From assembly GCA_026397175.1 (NCBI GenBank), contig JAPLVK010000021.1:56989-120988 (forward strand): a stretch of DNA of 64,000 nucleotides. Reading direction: 5' to 3'. Each line of letters opens with the position of its first letter. The first letter of the stretch is position 1. This DNA comes from Candidatus Berkelbacteria bacterium (GTDB lineage Bacteria; Patescibacteriota; UBA1384; DTJR01). Made by a program: the position numbers and the translations under genes. Positions 10,103 through 63,647 of the stretch are shown here, in pieces. Below the pieces are notes generated by a model. It made no database searches, was not told the origin of the DNA, and saw only the letters and a program-made list of their open reading frames with translations.

Positions 10103-10282
10103 ATTTTATTGACATTCGCGAGATCCGTTTTAGGAATATTCAATTATGGATATTTGATTTCGTGTACCTTTTTCTCGATCGAGAAAAAGGTACACGAAAG
10201 TTCTGATATAAGTTGCAAAATTTGGCACTATTTTGATTATATTTTAGATCGAAGATTATCTTTTTAATTAAAAAACAAAACG

Positions 10283-31764: not shown

Positions 31765-31851
31765 GCCATTTTTTGACAGTACTGATTTTTATATTAACTC
31801 CGATATTGTATCCGATATCAACTCAATACTACTCCAATATCGCGTTCTCTG

Positions 31852-31880
31852 TGCGATCGCACATATAGTGCGATAAATTA
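31852..31880. repeat. Direct repeat copy A (TGTGCGATCGCACATATAGTGCGATAAATT) containing the 12-bp palindrome GTGCGATCGCAC
   Basis: A near-identical copy lies at 32510-32541. The two copies flank the Cas2-fold gene. Confidence 0.7.
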
Positions 31881-31947: not shown

Positions 31948-32472
31948 TTAGTCCAAACGGAAAAGACGCATTAGCTTCTCTTGTTGTGGGAGGTGGTCCG
32001 TGTTCAAATATGCTACGAATGGCGCAACACCGATGTTTTGACAGAGCACCGCGATTTCCTCTTGGCATTCGTAGGGATAAACCCACAAGCTTTTTTGAAT
32101 TTGGTAAAAATTAAATTCTATAAGTTTTCTTCGCAAATAATTTCTTCGTCCCTTATATTTTTCGGGTATATCATAACAAACCAAATGCCAATTTCCGTCC
32201 CAACTGTCCTTCGGTTCAATTGTGATTTCTTCTACTTCGATTTGTTTTAATAGTCGCTCACCTTTCTTGGTCAATCTGATTTCTTCACCGGACAAATATA
32301 TTGCTTTATCATTATAAAGTTTTTTAATTGTCTTTTTGTATCTATATCTCTTGTCTTTATTCAACGGCTTCAATATTTGCAACAAATTTGGAGCAAGAAT
32401 AATTGCTCCAGTAGCAAATGTTATGAGTCCAATCGTCTTAAGAATATCTTTTTGATTTTGCGAAATTGTCAT
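31948..32472 (-). CDS. Membrane-anchored protein with C-terminal Cas2/VapD-like fold
   Basis: C-terminal roughly 85 aa (WHLVCYDIPEKYKGRRNYLRRKLIEFNFYQIQKSLWVYPYE…MRLFRL) follows the Cas2 pattern LVxYDI…RR…LRK…G.R.Q.SV. N-terminal TM helix. No CRISPR array is present. Confidence 0.5.
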   Translation of the reverse strand: MTISQNQKDILKTIGLITFATGAIILAPNLLQILKPLNKDKRYRYKKTIKKLYNDKAIYLSGEEIRLTKKGERLLKQIEVEEITIEPKDSWDGNWHLVCYDIPEKYKGRRNYLRRKLIEFNFYQIQKSLWVYPYECQEEIAVLCQNIGVAPFVAYLNTDHLPQQEKLMRLFRLD

Positions 32473-32509
32473 TAATTTAATTTTACACTGTTTTAGTTAA
32501 TATCGCACT

Positions 32510-32541
32510 TTATGTGCGATCGCATATAAAGTGCGATAAAT
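32510..32541. repeat. Direct repeat copy B (TGTGCGATCGCATATAAAGTGCGATAAATT) upstream of the Cas2-fold gene
   Basis: Same palindrome plus GTGCGAT half-site as copy A. Confidence 0.7.
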
Positions 32542-40825: not shown

Positions 40826-41738
40826 AAAAAATCGCATAGCGGTCATATCCGCCGAGATCTTTTAGAACCTTGGTTTTAAGGTTCTTTTTAGTTGCCATTT
40901 TTATAATGGAATTTTTTTGTTTATACCCGATTTCCAGGATTGCTTGGCCATTTTTAGATAATTTTTCCGGTAAATTTTCGATTAATTTAGCAATAAGTTC
41001 AAGGCCATCCTTGCCACCATTTAGAGCCAATGCCGGCTCGAAGGGTAGTTTTTTTGTTTCTTCTGGTGATAAATATGGAAGATTGGCAATAATTAGGTCA
41101 AATTTTTTTGGTAATTTTGGATTTGAAAAAAGATCGGACTTCAGGAACTTTATTTTGTTTTCTACATTGTGAAATCGAGCATTTTGCTTAGCAATTTGCA
41201 GCGCCTTTGGTGAGATGTCAGATGCAAAGGGTTGAATTACGAATTTAGAATTATGAATGATAGGATTGCCAGAGCAATCCTTTATAATTGAAATTATTAT
41301 ATTTCCTGATCCAGTTCCGATATCCAGAATGTTAAATCCTGTATTTATTCGTAATTCACCCGCCTGCATTCGCTGGCGCGAAGCAGCTGCGGGCAGGTAA
41401 TTCGTAATTCTAGATTCTATAAATCTTGTAGCAATTTCTATGATTTTTTCCGTTTCCGGGCGGGGGATTAAGACCGAATCATTGGCTGTAAATTCACGAT
41501 CGTGAAATGAGCACTTTCCTAGCACATATTGGATTGGAATGCCCGACAGAACTTCTTTCTCAATTTGCTTGAATTTCTTTAAATTATCTGCAGATAATTT
41601 AATTTTATCTTTGTCTAAAAACAATTTTTCGGGTGTAATTTTTAATAAATCACAAATCAATTTTTCTGTGATATTGCTCGGGAGATGAGAGTCATTAATT
41701 AGTCGAGAGATATTCTTCAAGCTTGTTCTTTCTGTCAA
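40812..41738 (-). CDS. prmC: Release factor glutamine N5-methyltransferase PrmC/HemK
   Basis: DIGTGSGNI…DLIIANLPY (NPPY-type motif). It overlaps prfA upstream. Confidence 0.8.
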   Translation of the reverse strand: MTERTSLKNISRLINDSHLPSNITEKLICDLLKITPEKLFLDKDKIKLSADNLKKFKQIEKEVLSGIPIQYVLGKCSFHDREFTANDSVLIPRPETEKIIEIATRFIESRITNYLPAAASRQRMQAGELRINTGFNILDIGTGSGNIIISIIKDCSGNPIIHNSKFVIQPFASDISPKALQIAKQNARFHNVENKIKFLKSDLFSNPKLPKKFDLIIANLPYLSPEETKKLPFEPALALNGGKDGLELIAKLIENLPEKLSKNGQAILEIGYKQKNSIIKMATKKNLKTKVLKDLGGYDRYAIFSIDK

Positions 41739-43186: not shown

Positions 43187-43246
43187 AATCCTGAACCCAC
43201 CACCTTGAAAGAAGGAGTGGGCAGGCAATAAAAGGAGGTGCTGACC

Positions 43247-43880
43247 GTGGGTGACACCACGCTCGGCGAAGCGCTCCGGCAGATAGCTGGACCGCTGAAA
43301 GATCTGCACGAGAAGCTGTCTGGTGAGGAAGGGCTTGTGTGGCTGGAGAAGCTGAAGAAGTTTCTTCGCAAGGAGAACCCCTGGGCCGAGGTGCAGAAGG
43401 TGGTTGTGGCTTTGCTCAAGTTCGTCAAGACGGTCGAGCTGCCGGCGGTCGGGGCATTCAAGCCCGAAGATCACTTCAAGGTCACTCCCGAGCGGGAACG
43501 CAAGACCGCCAAGGTGGTCATCGGCTATGTCAGCGATAATGTCAAGGCGCTCATCAAGGGCAGGTTGGAGCCGGAAGAGGCACAGGCCACTATCCGTATT
43601 CACGAACTCTGCCAGGCGTCCGTAGACGACCCGATTCTGGCCGAGCTAGGTGAGAATGTCAAGACGGGGCTCAATCGGATGTTCCAGATAATAGAGGAGC
43701 AAGGCCGTGGCCAAGAGGGCGACCTTCTGGTTGACGGCCGTGCCAACATCTTCTACATCGAGGGTACCGATTGGGCGGTCCTCTGCGACTGGCGCGCCGG
43801 CCCGCGGCTGGAACCTCTACGCCAGTCCGGTCTCTTCTCCGCGCAGTTGGAGCGCTGTCTACCGGGTCTTCTCCCGCTGA
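43247..43880 (+). CDS. DGR target (variable) protein, GC-rich; C-terminal VR. Reading frame disrupted or ambiguous by a 1-nt indel inside the VR
   Basis: GTG at 43247 sits 8 nt after AAAGGAGG. It is in frame with the AAC codons of the TR up to about 43804. After a 1-nt insertion relative to the TR, the TR-equivalent frame reads GWNLYASPVSSPRSWSAVYRVFSR and stops at 43878-43880. The ORF-track frame instead reads through to 43996. Confidence 0.6.
43771..43877 (+). repeat. DGR variable repeat (VR)
   Basis: Aligns to TR 44245-44353 with about 20 mismatches, every one at a TR adenine (A to C/T/G), no non-A substitutions, and a single 1-nt insertion near 43805. A GGGGC-TTTGT-GCCCC hairpin lies 20 nt downstream (43896-43910). 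Confidence 0.85.
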
Positions 43881-44244
43881 TTCTCTGGTATTTTGGGGCT
43901 TTGTGCCCCCTGTATCCGAGCCCCCCTTGTCCCTGTGACCCTTTGAAATCCCGCCTTTGGCGGGAAAGTAGAAGGGTCACTTTTCTGTTAAAATAAAAAT
44001 GAAGTTTGTGAAAGGCAACGGCTAGCCTTCGACCTTGCTCGGGCCAGGCGGCTTTTGCCCACAACTTTAGATTTTTGTTACAGAGAGTTGCTTTGGGTAC
44101 GCCTTGAGCGAGAATGGTTGCAAAAATCTCAAAAAATGAAGAGAATCGGTGCTTCCCATCAAGAGATTTTAGATCTCAATTAATATTCAGCGGAGCGATG
44201 TTGTATTTTGCCCGCAGTGATTATGAACGGCGGGTGGCACAAAC

Positions 44245-44749: not shown

Positions 44750-45751
44750 AAATTTGAAGAAATAATCTCAATTAATAATTTGTTTTTAGCATGGCAGGAA
44801 TTTGCTGAAAATAAAAGGAAACGAGCTGATGTACGGGCGTTTTCGCATAATTTGATGGGTAATGTTCTTGCTCTCCATCAGGATCTTAGCAATTTTAGAT
44901 ATCATCATGCAGATTACGAGGAATTTTATATTACCGATCCGAAGCCAAGAGTTATTCACAAAGCAACAGTGCGGGATCGTCTGCTGCATCGTGCGATTTA
45001 TCGGGTTCTCTATCCACTATTTAATTCAACATTTGTCTTTGATAGTTATTCCTGCCGGAAGGAAAAAGGAACGCACAAAGCGTTTAAACGGCTGGTTAAA
45101 ATTGCGAGACAGCAAAGTAAAAATTACTCTGGTTCTTGTTGGGCGTTAAAGTGCGATGTAAAAAAGTTTTTTCATAGCATTGACCATCAGGTTTTGGTTA
45201 ATCTCTTGTCGCAAAGAACTTCCGATGAGCGGCTAATTAATTTACTCAAAGAAATTATTGAAAGTTTTGCGGTTTGCGGGCGGAACGCAAACCTAAACAA
45301 TAAAAAAGGAATACCCCTCGGAAATTTGACTTCACAATTATTTGCCAATATTTACATGGACCCGCTTGATAAATTTGTCAAACACAAACTTAAAGCCAAA
45401 TATTATCTGCGATACGCTGACGATTTTATGATCTTAGCCAAAAATTCTGAAGTTTTACGAGATTATTTACAAGAAATTGATCATTTCTTAACCAATCATC
45501 TTAAACTTTCGCTTCATCCCGACAAAATCACTTTTCGCAAACTGAACTGGGGCTTGGATTTTGTCGGCTATGTTACATATCCAAAATTCAATTTGCCGAG
45601 ACCGAAAACTGTCGAAAGAATGTTTAGAAATCTTGAAGAAATAAAGAGAAATAGACCCGAGAAATTAAATAAAAGTTTGCAGTCATATCTTGGTTATCTT
45701 GAACATGTAGATGCCAAAGCAATTTCTGATTATTTGAAATTGCTTTATTAA
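44729..45751 (+). CDS. DGR reverse transcriptase (RT domains only, 340 aa)
   Basis: N-terminal NLFLAWQEFAENKRKR…YEEFYITDPKPRVIHKATVRDRLLHRAIY. RT motif C is RYADDFMIL. No maturase or endonuclease domain. GTG start. Confidence 0.85.
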   Translation: MKRIISHKFEEIISINNLFLAWQEFAENKRKRADVRAFSHNLMGNVLALHQDLSNFRYHHADYEEFYITDPKPRVIHKATVRDRLLHRAIYRVLYPLFNSTFVFDSYSCRKEKGTHKAFKRLVKIARQQSKNYSGSCWALKCDVKKFFHSIDHQVLVNLLSQRTSDERLINLLKEIIESFAVCGRNANLNNKKGIPLGNLTSQLFANIYMDPLDKFVKHKLKAKYYLRYADDFMILAKNSEVLRDYLQEIDHFLTNHLKLSLHPDKITFRKLNWGLDFVGYVTYPKFNLPRPKTVERMFRNLEEIKRNRPEKLNKSLQSYLGYLEHVDAKAISDYLKLLY

Positions 45752-57753: not shown

Positions 57754-58455
57754 ATGACCGAAAAATACAGACAATTTGCAGCAGGACAAAATGCAGTGAA
57801 TAATTTGCTCTCGGGCAAATATTCGCTGACTCGGGCCATGAAACCACCGGCCAAGAAAATTCTTGGCTGCATAGACGACGGAATCGAAGAAGCGCAAAGC
57901 AGGGCGGCGGGATCGTACATTCTTCTCGGGGAAGACGAAGCGATGAAGTTGGTTTGGCAAAACGGCTTTGAGTACATCGGATTTCACGATGACTGCGGAG
58001 CTGTCAAGAAATACCTTGAAGATAAGGGTGTTTTCGAACCATCGTCCGAGCAAGTAAACCAAGAGTCCAAACGGTGGGCGAAGCGTTTGGCTCAACTCAC
58101 GAAATGCAAAGCCAAAAAGATGGAATTGACTCGCGGTCATCATCACGAGGCGCGCATTGCATACTACGATGGCACTGGCAAGATGACCAGCACGATGGGG
58201 CTGCCCAAGGGATTTATTATTTCAAGGGGAGTTTTGCGCCGCGACTACGCATGTTCCGAGATGGTAACGGCAACCGATATCGCCTTCAACCATGGCTTCA
58301 ACGAACTATATTCTCCAGAACGCTCGTTTATTTGGGCGGCTCTCGGCAAAGATCAAAACCACGCCGCAGAGCTTGAAGGGGAACTCAAACCCATACTTTC
58401 TCGTCTCACGCATTTTGAGTTGGGAGCGATCAAGGTCATCGCGATTTCTCTCTAG
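57754..58455 (+). CDS. Hypothetical protein with beta-carbonic-anhydrase-like Cys…HxxCG arrangement (very tentative)
   Basis: LGCIDDGIEE … FHDDCGAVKK resembles beta-CA CxDxR / HxxCG metal-binding motifs but lacks the Arg. Intermediate GC. Confidence 0.3.
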   Translation: MTEKYRQFAAGQNAVNNLLSGKYSLTRAMKPPAKKILGCIDDGIEEAQSRAAGSYILLGEDEAMKLVWQNGFEYIGFHDDCGAVKKYLEDKGVFEPSSEQVNQESKRWAKRLAQLTKCKAKKMELTRGHHHEARIAYYDGTGKMTSTMGLPKGFIISRGVLRRDYACSEMVTATDIAFNHGFNELYSPERSFIWAALGKDQNHAAELEGELKPILSRLTHFELGAIKVIAISL

Positions 58456-58507
58456 CGTCTCTGCCACCAAATCCAACCTACGAGGTCGGATTTAGAGGTG
58501 AGATTCT

Positions 58508-58627
58508 TCACAGGCGATCGGAGTCCTTATTTTTTTAAGGATCTCGATCGCCTGTTTTGTTATACAAATTTTCCGATCGGAAAATTTGTATAACAAAACA
58601 GGCGATCGAGATCCTTAAAAAAATAAG
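58508..58627. repeat. 120-bp perfect palindrome (60-bp arms, no spacer) centred on CCGATCGG
   Basis: ATCGGAGTCCTTATTTTTTTAAGGATCTCGATCGCCTGTTTTGTTATACAAATTTTCCGA|TCGGAAAATTTGTATAACAAAACAGGCGATCGAGATCCTTAAAAAAATAAGGACTCCGAT. It contains multiple CGATCG sites and TGTTATACAAA (DnaA-box-like, 7/9 match to TTATCCACA). Confidence 0.85.
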
Positions 58628-58639
58628 GACTCCGATTGG

Positions 58640-58900
58640 CAAAACTGCTGACAGCTAAGAGATGTTAGTGGTAGATATATAAATTTTCTGTACGGAAAAA
58701 TCGTATATTTTAACAGTTTTATTTTTTAATTTATATTTTTATTTATGATCACATTTATACAAAAAGAAACGATCGTTCCGTTTTGTATAACAGAATTTAT
58801 ATTTTTTGTTTTTAAAATTTTTAAATTGCAAAAATTTGCATTGGGGGTTTAAATTTGATTCAATAAAATACTCACCTGATATGGTGAGAAGTCGCAACTT
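58640..58900. other. Extremely AT-rich tract (about 20% GC) with degenerate copies of palindrome sub-motifs
   Basis: TTTTCTGTACGGAAAAATC (58672-58690) is a degenerate copy of TTTTCCGATCGGAAAA. TATACAAAAAGAAACGATCGTTCCGTTTTGTATAAC (58760-58795). A TTGCAA-17-TTAAAT promoter for the downstream operon at about 58827-58857. Confidence 0.5.
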
Positions 58901-58924
58901 GACATCGAAATGGAGGCAAGAGAA

Positions 58925-59707
58925 ATGAACGGTAATTTTTTGGGTCGTTTGTCATTGAAGGATATCGTCGCGATGACCGAGGTGGTATCTCCAGAGATCA
59001 TTGCCGAGGAGATTGTCCAAGGTGGTCTGGTTCATATCCGCAATGTGGCTGATGGCGAGGAGGCGTATCACTACTCGAGCGGTAACTGGGGACCGATGTA
59101 TGTAACTGTCAAAGGGGGGTGCAGCAACCAGAACTTGTTCAAATTTATGGCACGCCAGCTTTCTCTGCGTGTCAGCGACATCACCGACTTCGATTTCGTT
59201 GCTGGGCTTGTAACTGGTGGCGTTCCGCCCTCGATCTACCTGCGGGACTGGGTGCAGGAAATGCAAGACAGGGAAATTCCCTGGGTTTACATTCGGGACA
59301 CACGCAAGCTTGGCGGCACCAAGGAGCATGTGACCGGACTCTATATGCCGAACGGCCAGCGTAGTTTGTTCATACCCGAGGGCGCAGTTGGGTTAGTGGT
59401 GGAAGAACTGGTGAACTATGCCAACTCGACTACCAATGGGGCTATTTTGCTCCGGAGTGAAGAGTGTAAGTGTGGCTGTCGCCGGGGTGTAACCATCTTG
59501 GATTATGACAACCCTGTAGCGCACAAATATCGTGCCAAGTACAATGTCGAACTGACTAGCGTGGTCAAGATGACCGAAGTGCTGGATGCTATCCAGCGGA
59601 TTGGTCTCTACTCTGACGATTTGGTCGAGGATGCCCGCTGGTCACAACGCGACCCGCAGGAATGGATGGGTTTCTACGGTCTCGAGAAGACGGAACTCAA
59701 GAAGTAA
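58925..59707 (+). CDS. Type-I phosphoribosyltransferase-like protein with degenerate PRPP loop, GC-rich
   Basis: YHYSSGNWGPMYVTVKG (compare OPRT FxLSSGxxSPxYxD), VAGLVTGGVPPS, and a PRPP-loop position reading LVVEELVNYANS instead of VxDVxTTGGS. GGAGG RBS. The likely start is 58925; the ORF-track start is 58910. Confidence 0.5.
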   Translation: MNGNFLGRLSLKDIVAMTEVVSPEIIAEEIVQGGLVHIRNVADGEEAYHYSSGNWGPMYVTVKGGCSNQNLFKFMARQLSLRVSDITDFDFVAGLVTGGVPPSIYLRDWVQEMQDREIPWVYIRDTRKLGGTKEHVTGLYMPNGQRSLFIPEGAVGLVVEELVNYANSTTNGAILLRSEECKCGCRRGVTILDYDNPVAHKYRAKYNVELTSVVKMTEVLDAIQRIGLYSDDLVEDARWSQRDPQEWMGFYGLEKTELKK

Positions 59708-59756
59708 CCATAGGTGCGTGATTAAGCGCCTGAATGATTAATAGGGATGTGTAAAC

Positions 59757-60503
59757 ATGGATCGTGACGCGATGGTTAAAACTCTGCCACTACTTTTCGT
59801 AGCACTCGACGACTCGTCGCTACCGAAGGTGATGGAGCGTGCCAGTACCGTTACACAGGTGACTGGCAATTACGGCTTCAAGGTCAACCTCGATGCTATG
59901 CTGGGTGTCGGTGTCGAGAACGCGCTCAATGCTGTTGCCCAGTTCGGGAAGCCGATCTTCGCCGACTTCAAGATGTACAATGGTGCTCGGACGATGTCCG
60001 AGATGGTGCAGGCGGCCGCTCGCAGTGGTGCTGTGCTCACCAATGTGTTTGCCGGTAATGCTCCCAACCTTCTCCGGAAAGTGGCCATAGCGGCCTCTGG
60101 TGATGAGGAGCATAAGGTGCCACCGATCTTGGTCTATGGCATCGGCCCCTTGACACACCTAACTGACGAGGACTGCCAGTGTATCTACGGCTGCAATTTT
60201 GAAGCAGCCACAGTACGCCTGGGCGAAATCACGGTGAAGGCAGGTTTGGATGGTTACATTGGCCCGGGCAGAATGAACCGTGCCTTGAACATCTTACAGC
60301 TCCCGCTTCTCAACCCGGCAGTCAGGCCTGACTGGTACGAGGACCCGAAGGCCAATGACCAGGAGCAGACGGTAACGCCAACCCAAGCGATTGTCGTTGC
60401 CGAGAAAAAGGTTGTACTCGTCTGCGGCAGCCCAATCTTCAAGAGCCCAGACCCGGAAGCGGCGCTCAAGAGGATTCTCGACGAGATCGCCAGAGCCGCC
60501 TAA
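59757..60503 (+). CDS. OMP-decarboxylase-superfamily (ribulose-phosphate-binding barrel) protein with non-canonical catalytic motif, GC-rich
   Basis: LLFVALDD…GFKVNLDAML…IFADFKMYNGART (DxK kept, downstream Asp replaced) …LVYGIGP…VVLVCGSPIFKSPDP, resembling the PyrF/KGPDC/HPS family. Confidence 0.5.
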   Translation: MDRDAMVKTLPLLFVALDDSSLPKVMERASTVTQVTGNYGFKVNLDAMLGVGVENALNAVAQFGKPIFADFKMYNGARTMSEMVQAAARSGAVLTNVFAGNAPNLLRKVAIAASGDEEHKVPPILVYGIGPLTHLTDEDCQCIYGCNFEAATVRLGEITVKAGLDGYIGPGRMNRALNILQLPLLNPAVRPDWYEDPKANDQEQTVTPTQAIVVAEKKVVLVCGSPIFKSPDPEAALKRILDEIARAA

Positions 60504-60858: not shown

Positions 60859-61312
60859 TTGGAGGCAATTTGGCTTACAATTTTTGACATTAGATAGAAC
60901 ATAAAGCAGAGCAAGCCCAGCTTTCTGCTGGGCTATTATAGTCAAAAAAAACCAAAAGCCCTGAAATTTGACAAATGGATTTCCTGTTAACCCATTAGAC
61001 CTGGGAGCATTTAAATATGCATTAACGGGAAAAATCATCGGTTTGACAAAACCAGATGAGGAAGTGTTGAGGACACTTTACAGAAAAAATCCTCGTCAAT
61101 TCAAATTGAATTAAAGAGCCAGAATTGCTTTCAAGGCAATTCACTCAAATTCTTTACTAAGAGTTTGATCCTGGCTCAGGATGAACGCTAGCGGTGTACC
61201 TAAAACATGCAAGTCGTACGCTTGTAAAAGCGTGGCGAACGGGTGAGTAACGCGTGGGAATCTGCCTCAATCCGGGAAATACCTTGCCGAAAGGTGAGTT
61301 AATGTCCCATGA

Positions 61313-61739
61313 GATGGTAGCTAGTCATTGGTAGTTAGTTACTGGTAAAATGAGTTCATGATTTATAATGGACTCGATGTCTATAAACGAGCATACAAGT
61401 TGGCAATAGAAATACATAAGTTCTCCTTAGAACTTCCAAGATATTTACATAATGATATCGGAAGTCAAATAAGAAGATCCTCAAGATCGATTCCTTCTCA
61501 AATAGCAGAAGGTTTCTCTAGAAATAAATCAGATAAAGACAAGAAAAATTTCTTAAGAGATGCTCTTGGCTCAAACGAAGAAATGCTCTTCAATCTCAAG
61601 TTTATGAGAGATACGGATCTTATAAATTTAGAGAAGTATGAGTATTTCTTTAGCGAGTATGTTATCTGCGGAAAGCAGCTAATGAACTTGATGAAAAGTA
61701 TAGATACCAGAAACTAGCGACTAGCGACTAGTTACCATC
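61313..61739 (+). other. Intervening sequence (IVS) in 16S rRNA: 14-bp extended stem (GATGGTAGCTAGTC / GACTAGTTACCATC) closing a roughly 400-nt loop that encodes a protein
   Basis: The stem halves lie at 61313-61326 and 61726-61739. Flanking rRNA sequence is continuous with the conserved 16S 5' domain. Confidence 0.65.
61358..61717 (+). CDS. Four-helix-bundle protein of the rRNA-IVS family, encoded inside the 16S IVS
   Basis: YKRAYKLAIEIHKFSLELPRYLHNDIGSQIRRSSRSIPSQIAEGFSR is the family signature (…GLxSQIRRAAVSIPxNIAEG…). Same family as the Avd-like ORF at 44354-44749. Confidence 0.7.
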   Translation: MIYNGLDVYKRAYKLAIEIHKFSLELPRYLHNDIGSQIRRSSRSIPSQIAEGFSRNKSDKDKKNFLRDALGSNEEMLFNLKFMRDTDLINLEKYEYFFSEYVICGKQLMNLMKSIDTRN

Positions 61740-62279
61740 AAAGCTCCGGCGGATTGAGAGGAGCCTGCGTCCTATCAGCTTGTTGGTGGGGTAAAAGCCT
61801 ACCAAGGCAACGACGGGTAGCTGGTCTGAGAGGATGGTCAGCCACAATGGGACTGAGACACGGCCCATACACCTACGGGTGGCAGCAGTTAGGAATCGTA
61901 CACAATGGGGGAAACCCTGATGTCGTGACACCGCGTGAAGGATGAAGGTTTTCGGATCGTAAACTTCTTTTCTATGGGAGGATTATGACTTAACCATAGG
62001 AATAAGCATCGGCTAACTACGTGCCAGAAGCCTCGGTAATACGTAGGATGCGAGCGTTATCCGGTCTTATTGGGCGTAAAGAGCGCGTAGGCGGCCCGGC
62101 AAGTCCAATCTTAAATCCCATGGCTCAACCATGGAGCTGGATTGGATACTACCTGGCTTGAACACTTGCAGGGGTATGCGGAATCTACGGTGTAGGAGTA
62201 AAATCCATTGATATCGTAGAGAACACCAATGGCGAAGGCAGCTTGCTAGGCATTCACTGACGCTGAGGCGCGAAAGCGT

Positions 62280-62313
<34 letters not shown>

Positions 62314-62816
62314 ACGCCGTAAACGATGCGGACTAGGTATTGGGATCATCGACCGTCCTTGTACCAAAGCAAACGCGTTAAGTCCGCCGCCTGGGGAGTA
62401 CGAGCGCAAGCTTAAAACTCAAAGGAATTGGCGGGGGCTCGCACAAGCGGTGGAACATGTGGTTTAATTCGACAGTAAGCGGAGCACCTCACCAAGGTTT
62501 GACATCTATGGAATCCTGATGAAAGTCGGGAGTGCCCGCAAGGGAGCCGTAAGACAGGTGCTGCACGGTCGTCGTCAGCTCGCGGCATGAGCTGTTCCGT
62601 TAACTCGGGACACGAGCGCAACCCCGATCGTCTGTTAAATTTCCACACGTGTTACAATGGCCGGTACAGAGGGTTGCAATATCGCGAGATGGAGCTAATC
62701 CCTAAAGCCGGTCCCAGTTCGGATTGGAGTCTGAAACTCGACTACATGCAGTCGGAATTGCTAGTAACCGTAGATCAGAACGATCCGGTGAATACGTCCT
62801 CGAGCCTTGCACACAA

Positions 62817-63647
62817 ATGTAAAGACGCATGGCAGTTTGATTAACTAAGTCGTGGAAATCGACTCCTCCGATACGCCATCGGAGCGTAGCTTAAAGCAGG
62901 TCCAACCTCGTGAGAGATGGACTAGAGGGCTAAATGGCAATTTGCAGCGGGCAGGCGAAAACCTGTACTGACTTATGTTAGGCGGTTGTGGCCTAGGGAA
63001 AGTACAATAAAAAGGTTGCTCGATGTAGAAAATAGCTAATCAAATGATCCATGGAGATCTTGCCTATGATAACGCAAACAAGGGCAAGAAGTCAGCCTGT
63101 TCATAGTAGACGCTGTGGTATAATGTATTTACCATGACGCAGCGTCAAAGGGACAGACCTAAGATTCTGTCACCAGAATATCTAGTCGGCTTAACTGATG
63201 GCGAAGGTTGCTTTTATGTTAACATTCGCCCGCCGCGATCAAAAAATGGCTTGCCTCAAGTAGAATTTCATTTCTACATTAAGTTAAGAGGCGACCACTT
63301 GGATCTTCTAAAAAAAGTCCAAAAATCTTTTGGTTGCGGAGCAGTGTATCGCCAAGCCGAGAAGCGAGCAAATCATAGCGAATGCTATCGGTTTGAAATA
63401 AACTCGCGAAAAGATATAAATCGTGTACTAGTACCGTTTTTCTTGCACTATCCCTTGCAGGGTCCGAAATCAAATGATTTTGCGACCTTCTGTAAAATTT
63501 TCAACCTTGTTTTGCAAGGTGAGAATAGTACAGAAAAGGGACTAGTTAAAATTAAACGGTTGAAAGAAAAAATGAATCTTGGGGCCCGCCGAGTGTGGAA
63601 AATCCGCTTGCTCGGTGGCAACGTGAAGTAGCGTTAACTATCACAAT
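62817..63647 (+). mobile_element. Insertion of 831 nt (probable intron) in 16S between …CCTTGCACACA and CCGCCCGTCA… (E. coli position about 1400), carrying a LAGLIDADG homing endonuclease
   Basis: Conserved 16S sequence breaks at 62816 and resumes at 63648. Insertions at this site with homing endonuclease ORFs are known in CPR 16S genes. Confidence 0.65.
63134..63631 (+). CDS. LAGLIDADG-family homing endonuclease (single-motif, 165 aa)
   Basis: YLVGLTDGEGCFYVNI is the LAGLIDADG motif. The size resembles I-CreI-type homodimeric enzymes. Confidence 0.75.
   Translation: MTQRQRDRPKILSPEYLVGLTDGEGCFYVNIRPPRSKNGLPQVEFHFYIKLRGDHLDLLKKVQKSFGCGAVYRQAEKRANHSECYRFEINSRKDINRVLVPFFLHYPLQGPKSNDFATFCKIFNLVLQGENSTEKGLVKIKRLKEKMNLGARRVWKIRLLGGNVK

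Follow-up and report, generated by a model that had tools for sequence, protein, structure and literature searches.

The record of a Candidatus Berkelbacteria MAG (locus tags NTZ65_04120/04125) carries, in the 64,000-nucleotide window (the whole stretch of DNA that was analysed), a 120-bp perfect palindrome that is probably not a property of the organism; we consider it a fold-back copy private to this record, which would be a local metagenome assembly error. The palindrome is true of the record and is not demonstrated for the organism, and its outer right arm (58593–58635/6) has no match in assemblies of the same clone. What remains true of the site is a hairpin at the end of a gene and a short palindromic site of a kind typical of the lineage.

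The long form, as written in the record, is the following.

58517–58636, no strand assigned: 120-bp perfect zero-spacer palindrome, centre between 58576 and 58577 (CCGA/TCGG)

In the window sequence, its 60-nt arms (58517–58576 and 58577–58636) are 100% complementary with a spacer of 0, as stated in the preliminary description, which had set the start (58508) about 9 nt too far left. The several CGATCG sites listed there were found again at 58545, 58574 and 58603 inside the palindrome and at 58515 on its edge, with one more nearby at 58770. When all even centres of the 64 kb were scanned, perfect palindromes had arms of 60, 21, 12 and 8 nt and then of at most 7 nt; because the next longest arms are only 21, 12 and 8 nt, a chance origin of the 60-nt arms is excluded. 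Arm and core are single-copy within the window; TGTTATACAAA occurs once on the plus strand (58558) and twice on the minus strand (58585, 58782), and TTTTCCGATCGGAAAA has a single exact occurrence. The palindrome is internal to a 129-kb contig and has unique flanks on both sides, there are 0 Ns in the window, and neither a contig-end position nor an unlimited inverted duplication was found at this site.

For comparison, we used Logan contigs (k = 31) from other sequencing runs that encode exactly the same 233-aa protein as the gene upstream of the palindrome or exactly the same pyrE-like protein as the gene downstream of it. The features concerned are listed below.

57754–58455, plus strand: upstream gene for the 233-aa hypothetical protein NTZ65_04120, from the ORF list
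58561–58592, no strand assigned: site A, corroborated 32-bp perfect palindrome (TATACAAATTTTCCGA/TCGGAAAATTTGTATA), with the k = 31 break pattern of 16-nt arms
58593–58635, no strand assigned: fold-back segment without corroboration, exact reverse complement of 58518–58560, from the window aligned with contigs L011 and L013
58925–60503, plus strand: downstream operon with a divergent pyrE-like gene (58925–59707) and pyrF (59757–60503)

The left-side contigs with the identical 233-aa protein, which come from many runs, all have 0 mismatches to the window over up to 3.8 kb, and those from 6 runs stop at 58590, that is, 14 nt beyond the palindrome centre. The right contigs with the identical pyrE-like protein (at least 3 runs among the matches listed) start 14–15 nt left of the centre; in them TCGGAAAATTTGTATA is followed by GTAAATTAAACCTGTTGTTTTAGCTACTTTTTGATTTATCTGAAT and then by TTGGCAAAAC..., and they match the window again from 58636 on, with 0 mismatches for 1.9–2.5 kb. 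Where the window has the 43 nt of the fold-back segment, the independent assemblies thus carry 45 nt of unrelated AT-rich sequence (GTAAATTAAACCTGTTGTTTTAGCTACTTTTTGATTTATCTGAAT). These native 45 nt are absent from the 64-kb window and so have not been moved elsewhere in it. At the return junction of the fold-back segment (CCGAT / TTGGC), as read from the sequences, the two sides share 1 nt only. A single PvuI (CGATCG) site, at 58603, distinguishes the two versions, which would also differ in their snap-back behaviour.

Apart from this segment, the window and the other runs agree completely over about 10 kb, so that one clone is present in the samples. In this clone only the 32-bp perfect palindrome is present in 8 other runs, possibly from other samples or dates than the MAG: the assemblies have 16-nt arms, a different stretch of 45 nt and flanks that are 100% identical, so that the long form is missing from independent assemblies of the same genome.

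The arm length follows from a rule that we derived for the k = 31 graph, according to which the flanking unitig of a perfect palindrome ends at centre + 30 − arm. The rule held at the 42-bp palindrome 10158–10199 (arm 21, contigs ending at centre +9 in 3 runs) and in the relative L028/L029, where the Logan contig at a 34-bp palindrome (arm 17) ends at centre +13. The break offset of +14 at the focal site therefore gives an arm of 16 nt, and the end at 58546 expected for a 60-nt arm was found in 0 of 13 contigs. The k = 31 graph alone cannot separate a joining of left and right from a folding back of each flank, as both attach to the same palindromic 31-mer; the adjacency of the two flanks rests on the MAG contig, the unchanged skew and the gene orientation. 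In SRR20698650/51, possibly the source project, the Logan contigs stop short of the palindrome. The ENA MEGAHIT contig L026 of a related species (78% DNA identity) ends within the 233-aa gene, and hence no assembly with k > 32 crosses the palindrome.

The left arm of the long palindrome consists mostly of a hairpin that follows the 233-aa gene, and then of half of the 32-bp palindrome.

58510–58555, plus strand: intrinsic-terminator-like hairpin of the 233-aa gene, inverted repeat of about 19 pairs followed by TTTTGTT

Its stem sequences are ACAGGCGATCGGAGTCCTTA and TAAGGATCTCGATCGCCTGT, and its RNA fold has a predicted energy of −31.2 kcal/mol (z = −7.9). The hairpin has the form of an intrinsic terminator, because the stem-loop begins 55 nt past the stop codon of the 233-aa gene, and it is unchanged in every independent left-side contig that reaches that far; from its form, it would end transcription of this gene. 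It resembles rho-independent terminators in the stable stem-loop right after a stop codon and in the TTTTGTT that comes next, and differs from them in an unusually long stem; a simple terminator scan missed it. A stable stem-loop after a gene together with a T-run is found only at 58510–58555, whereas the 32-bp core and the 120-bp form have no T-run after the stem.

To the right of the core lies an AT-rich tract with two further sites.

58637–58900, no strand assigned: AT-rich intergenic tract upstream of the pyrE-like gene, 25.4% GC, the most AT-rich 264 bp of the window
58673–58710, no strand assigned: site C, 27/38 identical to the 38-bp central unit, of which it is a decayed copy, centre CTGTACGG instead of CCGATCGG
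58755–58790, no strand assigned: site B, imperfect palindrome TTATACAAA-N6-CGATCG-N6-TTTGTATAA, 18-nt arms 89% complementary

The earlier figure of about 20% GC for this tract was too low. The 27 matches of site C were reached in 0 of 5000 Markov simulations (P < 2e-4), and the extended pairing of site B amounts to 16/20 pairs. The local "boxes" first described as DnaA-box-like elements are only half-sites of two palindromes. Sites A, B and C are all located past the terminator-like hairpin and ahead of the start codon of the pyrE-like gene, and the tract contains a promoter consensus, TTAACA-16-TATATT, at 58710–58737, as a pattern match only. The stretch from site A to site B contains no remnant of a PaaX-like gene. 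The 32-bp palindrome is real, and site A with its two decayed copies represents putative protein-binding or hairpin sites in the promoter region of the pyrE-like gene.

Two ordinary elements are real, the terminator-like hairpin after the 233-aa gene and the adjoining 32-bp CGATCG-centred palindrome; in the record alone, the 43–44 nt to the left of the core are repeated as their reverse complement on the right side. The repeated copy takes the place of the 45 nt of the native AT-rich spacer and so turns hairpin and core into a 120-bp perfect palindrome. According to the explanation that we favour, the fold-back sequence would have arisen at the short palindrome and would probably have been joined to the following sequence although no read supported the join; the copy would then have been made in silico and not in the cell. 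An assembly error is favoured because the long form is missing in 8 other runs of the same clone while the flanks are identical, and because a short palindrome is a natural site for fold-back sequence. As a plain de Bruijn assembler cannot make a 1-nt join, a scaffolding, gap-filling or curation step must be assumed. Against an assembly error also count the position of the fold-back inside a 129-kb contig without Ns and the several real perfect palindromes in the genome, which make a biological process that produces them plausible.

Local assembly errors without read support are common in short-read MAGs; Chen et al. (2020, Genome Res, PMC7111523) found 13 in one CPR genome of 1.13 Mb, a rate of about 1 per 90 kb. 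The present case resembles them in that a short stretch of consensus is at odds with independent data within perfect surroundings in a CPR MAG, and differs in that fold-back or palindromic errors are not specifically described in that paper, where "palindrom" and "hairpin" have 0 occurrences. An arm of 59–60 nt equals (k − 1)/2 for k = 119–121, which would fit a fold-back contig tip; without knowledge of the assembler this is numerology, and we gave it zero weight. The caveat in the preliminary description that long perfect palindromes are a classic assembly artefact has proved to be the best supported of its options, since the long form does not occur in independent contigs of the same clone.

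A possible, though clearly less probable, explanation is that the long form is a real and very recent allele, which arose from a 16-nt-arm palindrome by a template-switch mutation and reached 60-nt arms in a single event. The nascent strand would copy the 32-bp palindrome, snap back, take its own left flank as template for about 44 nt and rejoin the original template about 45 nt further on. The segment 58593–58635 has the pattern of such an event: it is the exact reverse complement of the adjoining sequence, the change begins precisely at the edge of an existing perfect inverted repeat, and the length is nearly kept (43 nt for 45 nt), but this pattern does not separate a cellular from a software origin. 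The 1-nt junction is more in keeping with a polymerase or end-joining event than with a k-mer join, and the genome has other perfect zero-spacer palindromes. Perfect palindromes of more than 100 bp, however, are unstable in bacteria, and the same would be expected of this one. In addition, the signature of the allele is present in 0 of 8 informative runs of the same clone, and the prior for such an event as the sole difference in about 10 kb is low.

It is documented that template switching creates perfect stems of tens of bases in single events (PMC8794818), and the process is well studied at bacterial quasi-palindromes (PMC7202029). Compared with the quasi-palindrome mutations of the Ripley type, the likeness is that one flank gives way to the reverse complement of the other, giving a longer perfect hairpin with a small change in length. 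The difference is that the classic bacterial cases fix a few mismatches in an imperfect palindrome, whereas here 43–44 nt without prior complementarity would change at once. By eye, the native right flank has about 30% identity with the left arm and no pre-existing complementarity, so that this is not a classic quasi-palindrome correction. The further proposal that the window caught a real one-step template switch from 32 bp to 120 bp in a CPR bacterium, and that the same process may have built the CGATCG-centred perfect palindromes of the lineage, is rather doubtful.

A function of the complete 120-bp unit as a bidirectional terminator or insulator, set between the upstream gene and the pyrE-like/pyrF/rRNA region, is in our view improbable. 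The predicted fold of 58517–58636 is very stable (−103.8 kcal/mol), and the unit sits between two co-oriented transcription units, but 8 runs of the same clone lack the right arm, the left sub-hairpin and its T-run already have the shape of a terminator, and the full hairpin has no T-run after it on the plus strand. Of the terminator role first proposed for the palindrome, the part that stands is a strong terminator-like hairpin in the left arm, serving the upstream gene; the whole 120-bp unit is not needed for it.

Still less likely, in our estimate, is the proposal that the palindrome and the AT-rich tract form a replication origin or a partition site, whether of the chromosome or of an integrated element. 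Five DnaA-box-like 9-mers with 1 mismatch lie within 290 bp, the tract 58637–58900 is the most AT-rich of the window, and the genes on both sides are compositionally atypical. However, four of these "boxes" are one and the same half-site, TTATACAAA, repeated in two palindromes, and there is no perfect box at the locus: TTATCCACA occurs 0 times in the window, and its sole exact TTATNCACA is far away at 44952. DnaA boxes with 1 mismatch are not enriched in the window (56 found vs 60.6 expected), and the GC skew is positive, the cumulative curve climbing through 58–59 kb without an inflection. At the site, neither a sign change of the skew nor an adjacent dnaA or dnaN was found, and the neighbouring genes are unrelated to replication; nor is there a parA, parB, rep or integrase gene nearby. 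The same genes are GC-rich in a syntenic relative too, as is the homologue of the 233-aa gene in L028, and hence no recent insertion is involved. Compared by blastn with plasmids and phages, the entire intergenic region gave no match.

Upstream of the palindrome lie genes for trigger factor, clpP, NIF3, a nitroreductase and a DUF4395 protein and then the 233-aa hypothetical gene, and no replication, partition or recombinase gene is among its neighbours. The 233-aa gene (GC 49.6%, GC3 55%) is GC-richer than its neighbours, and its product has no Pfam, NCBIfam or PDB match. The pyrE-like gene and pyrF are GC-rich as well (GC3 63–67%); their NCBIfam pyrE/pyrF matches are below the curated cut-offs, and there is a Pfam OMPdecase match. 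The three genes together form a GC3 island (57754–60503) of 55–67% against 36–46% in the neighbouring genes, and an ORF at 43238–43996 has a GC3 of 71%. The pyrE-like protein has no relative in the GTDB genomes searched, and the trigger factor matched only distant CPR contigs in JGI metagenomes (26–33% identity), which were of no help for the locus.

A conserved leader, TTGACAAGGAG(R)GAGAA..ACTAGAAG, precedes the pyrE-like gene in contigs L020 (690–720) and L021 (80–110) and also an unrelated 234-aa gene in L028 (8240–8270), whereas the window has only a shortened version of it at 58898–58924. It may represent a conserved promoter or else an RNA leader. Further downstream, a 16S rRNA gene was matched by Rfam at 61153–62851; the match extends over 1699 nt against a model of 1533 positions with a score of only 1083 bits, which suggests that the gene carries an insertion, as rRNA genes of CPR bacteria often do. 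It was the only Rfam match in the window at gathering scores. A 165-aa ORF (63134–63631) lies about 280 nt downstream of the 16S match, and a tRNA scan of the window found none.

A hairpin-telomere or cruciform resolution site resembling telRL of phage N15, or a junction of a hairpin-ended linear replicon, is hardly credible. It has in its favour that the palindrome is perfect and without a spacer and that the k = 31 graph alone is compatible with two fold-back ends. Against it, the record joins both flanks inside a 129-kb contig, skew and gene orientation are unchanged across the site, and no protelomerase-like gene is present among the scanned ORFs. What all assemblies share amounts to only 32 bp, palindromes of a similar kind are found at several internal sites, and the long form, far from being a conserved palindrome accompanied by a resolvase gene, is not conserved even within the clone. 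The protelomerase target telRL of phage N15 likewise is perfectly palindromic and flanked on either side by unique sequence; here, in contrast, a protelomerase gene is missing, conservation does not extend to the long form, and the site lies within the chromosome among housekeeping genes. The suggestion of a hairpin-resolution site is not supported, the long palindrome being absent from independent assemblies of the same clone.

A repeated mobile palindromic element of the MITE, REP or ERIC type has no support, since arm and core are single-copy in the 64 kb and only two decayed local copies exist; the exact 32-bp core had 0 matches among GTDB species representatives and JGI metagenomes. An RNA family was rejected as well: at permissive E-values, Rfam gave only sub-threshold eukaryotic miRNA-precursor models on both strands, which are generic matches to a long hairpin.

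The 32-bp core belongs to a class of CGATCG-centred zero-spacer palindromes of this Candidatus Berkelbacteria genome. Of 1027 centres with a 6-bp palindrome in the window, 26 are CGATCG, and the five longest extended palindromes (at least 15/20 pairs) of the 1027, at 58576, 10178, 32519, 58772 and 31856, are all CGATCG-centred.

10158–10199, 31838–31875, 32501–32538, 58561–58592 and 58755–58790: CGATCG-centred palindromes of the window, arms all different
L020, 580–609: 30-bp palindrome just upstream of the pyrE-like gene
L020, 2578–2611: 34-bp palindrome after pyrF

The contig L020, whose pyrE-like protein is 69% identical, has these two perfect zero-spacer palindromes, both CGATCG-centred and again with arms that differ. 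The members of the class are putative protein-binding or hairpin sites. In the window, CGATCG is over-represented 2.7-fold (26 found vs 9.6 expected), and GCGATCGC is over-represented too (3 found vs 0.4 expected). In this respect the genome resembles cyanobacteria with their HIP1 element (GCGATCGC); the differences are that the host is a CPR bacterium, that the enrichment is modest and that the hexamer is central in palindromes of 30–42 bp with variable arms.

Other 6-bp palindromes are scarce in the window (AACGTT 0, GACGTC 0, GTCGAC 0 and TACGTA 1 vs 10–20 expected), and GCCGGC and CGGCCG are 4–6-fold over-represented; judged by these counts, the hexamer pattern looks like restriction-site avoidance with a separate enrichment. 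A 24-bp perfect palindrome, TTAAATTATCTG/CAGATAATTTAA, is located at 41579–41602, inside or at the junction of two minus-strand ORFs.

Two similar palindromes (31838–31875 and 32501–32538) stand on either side of a small minus-strand gene with a PaaX central/Cas2-like domain (31948–32472), and one of the two is 29 nt upstream of its start codon. In the syntenic relative L028 (6789–7420), a PaaX-like gene directly follows the 233-aa homologue and lies between two related perfect or near-perfect palindromes, whose arms differ from those in the window and whose centre is CGGCCG. The palindrome–gene–palindrome layout may represent a module that regulates itself or a small mobile unit, and related pairs of palindromes beside promoters would fit operators of dimeric regulators better than RNA hairpins. 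A distant CPR contig (L023, 1470–1765) has three related zero-spacer palindromes, GGTAGAGACGAACGG/CCGTTCGTCTCTAC, with the centre CGGCCG and 110–150 bp apart. Perfect palindromes that occur in clusters and share a lineage-specific centre may be a general trait of CPR genomes.

Taken as a whole, the earlier interpretation of the site is partly supported, whereas readings of the site as an origin, a partition site, a telomere or a mobile element are without support. If the long form is an artefact, a public MAG record has about 44 wrong bases that are open to misreading as an origin, a telomere site or a cruciform, and the cheap check used here, independent k = 31 contigs with the arm length read from their break points, is reusable for other MAGs. 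If it is real, the window would give a rare direct view of the one-step birth of a long perfect hairpin in a bacterium that is uncultured and has reduced DNA repair. In both cases, the lead for the biology of this lineage is not the 120-bp form; it is the class of CGATCG-centred palindromes, including the pairs around the gene of the PaaX/Cas2-like regulator.
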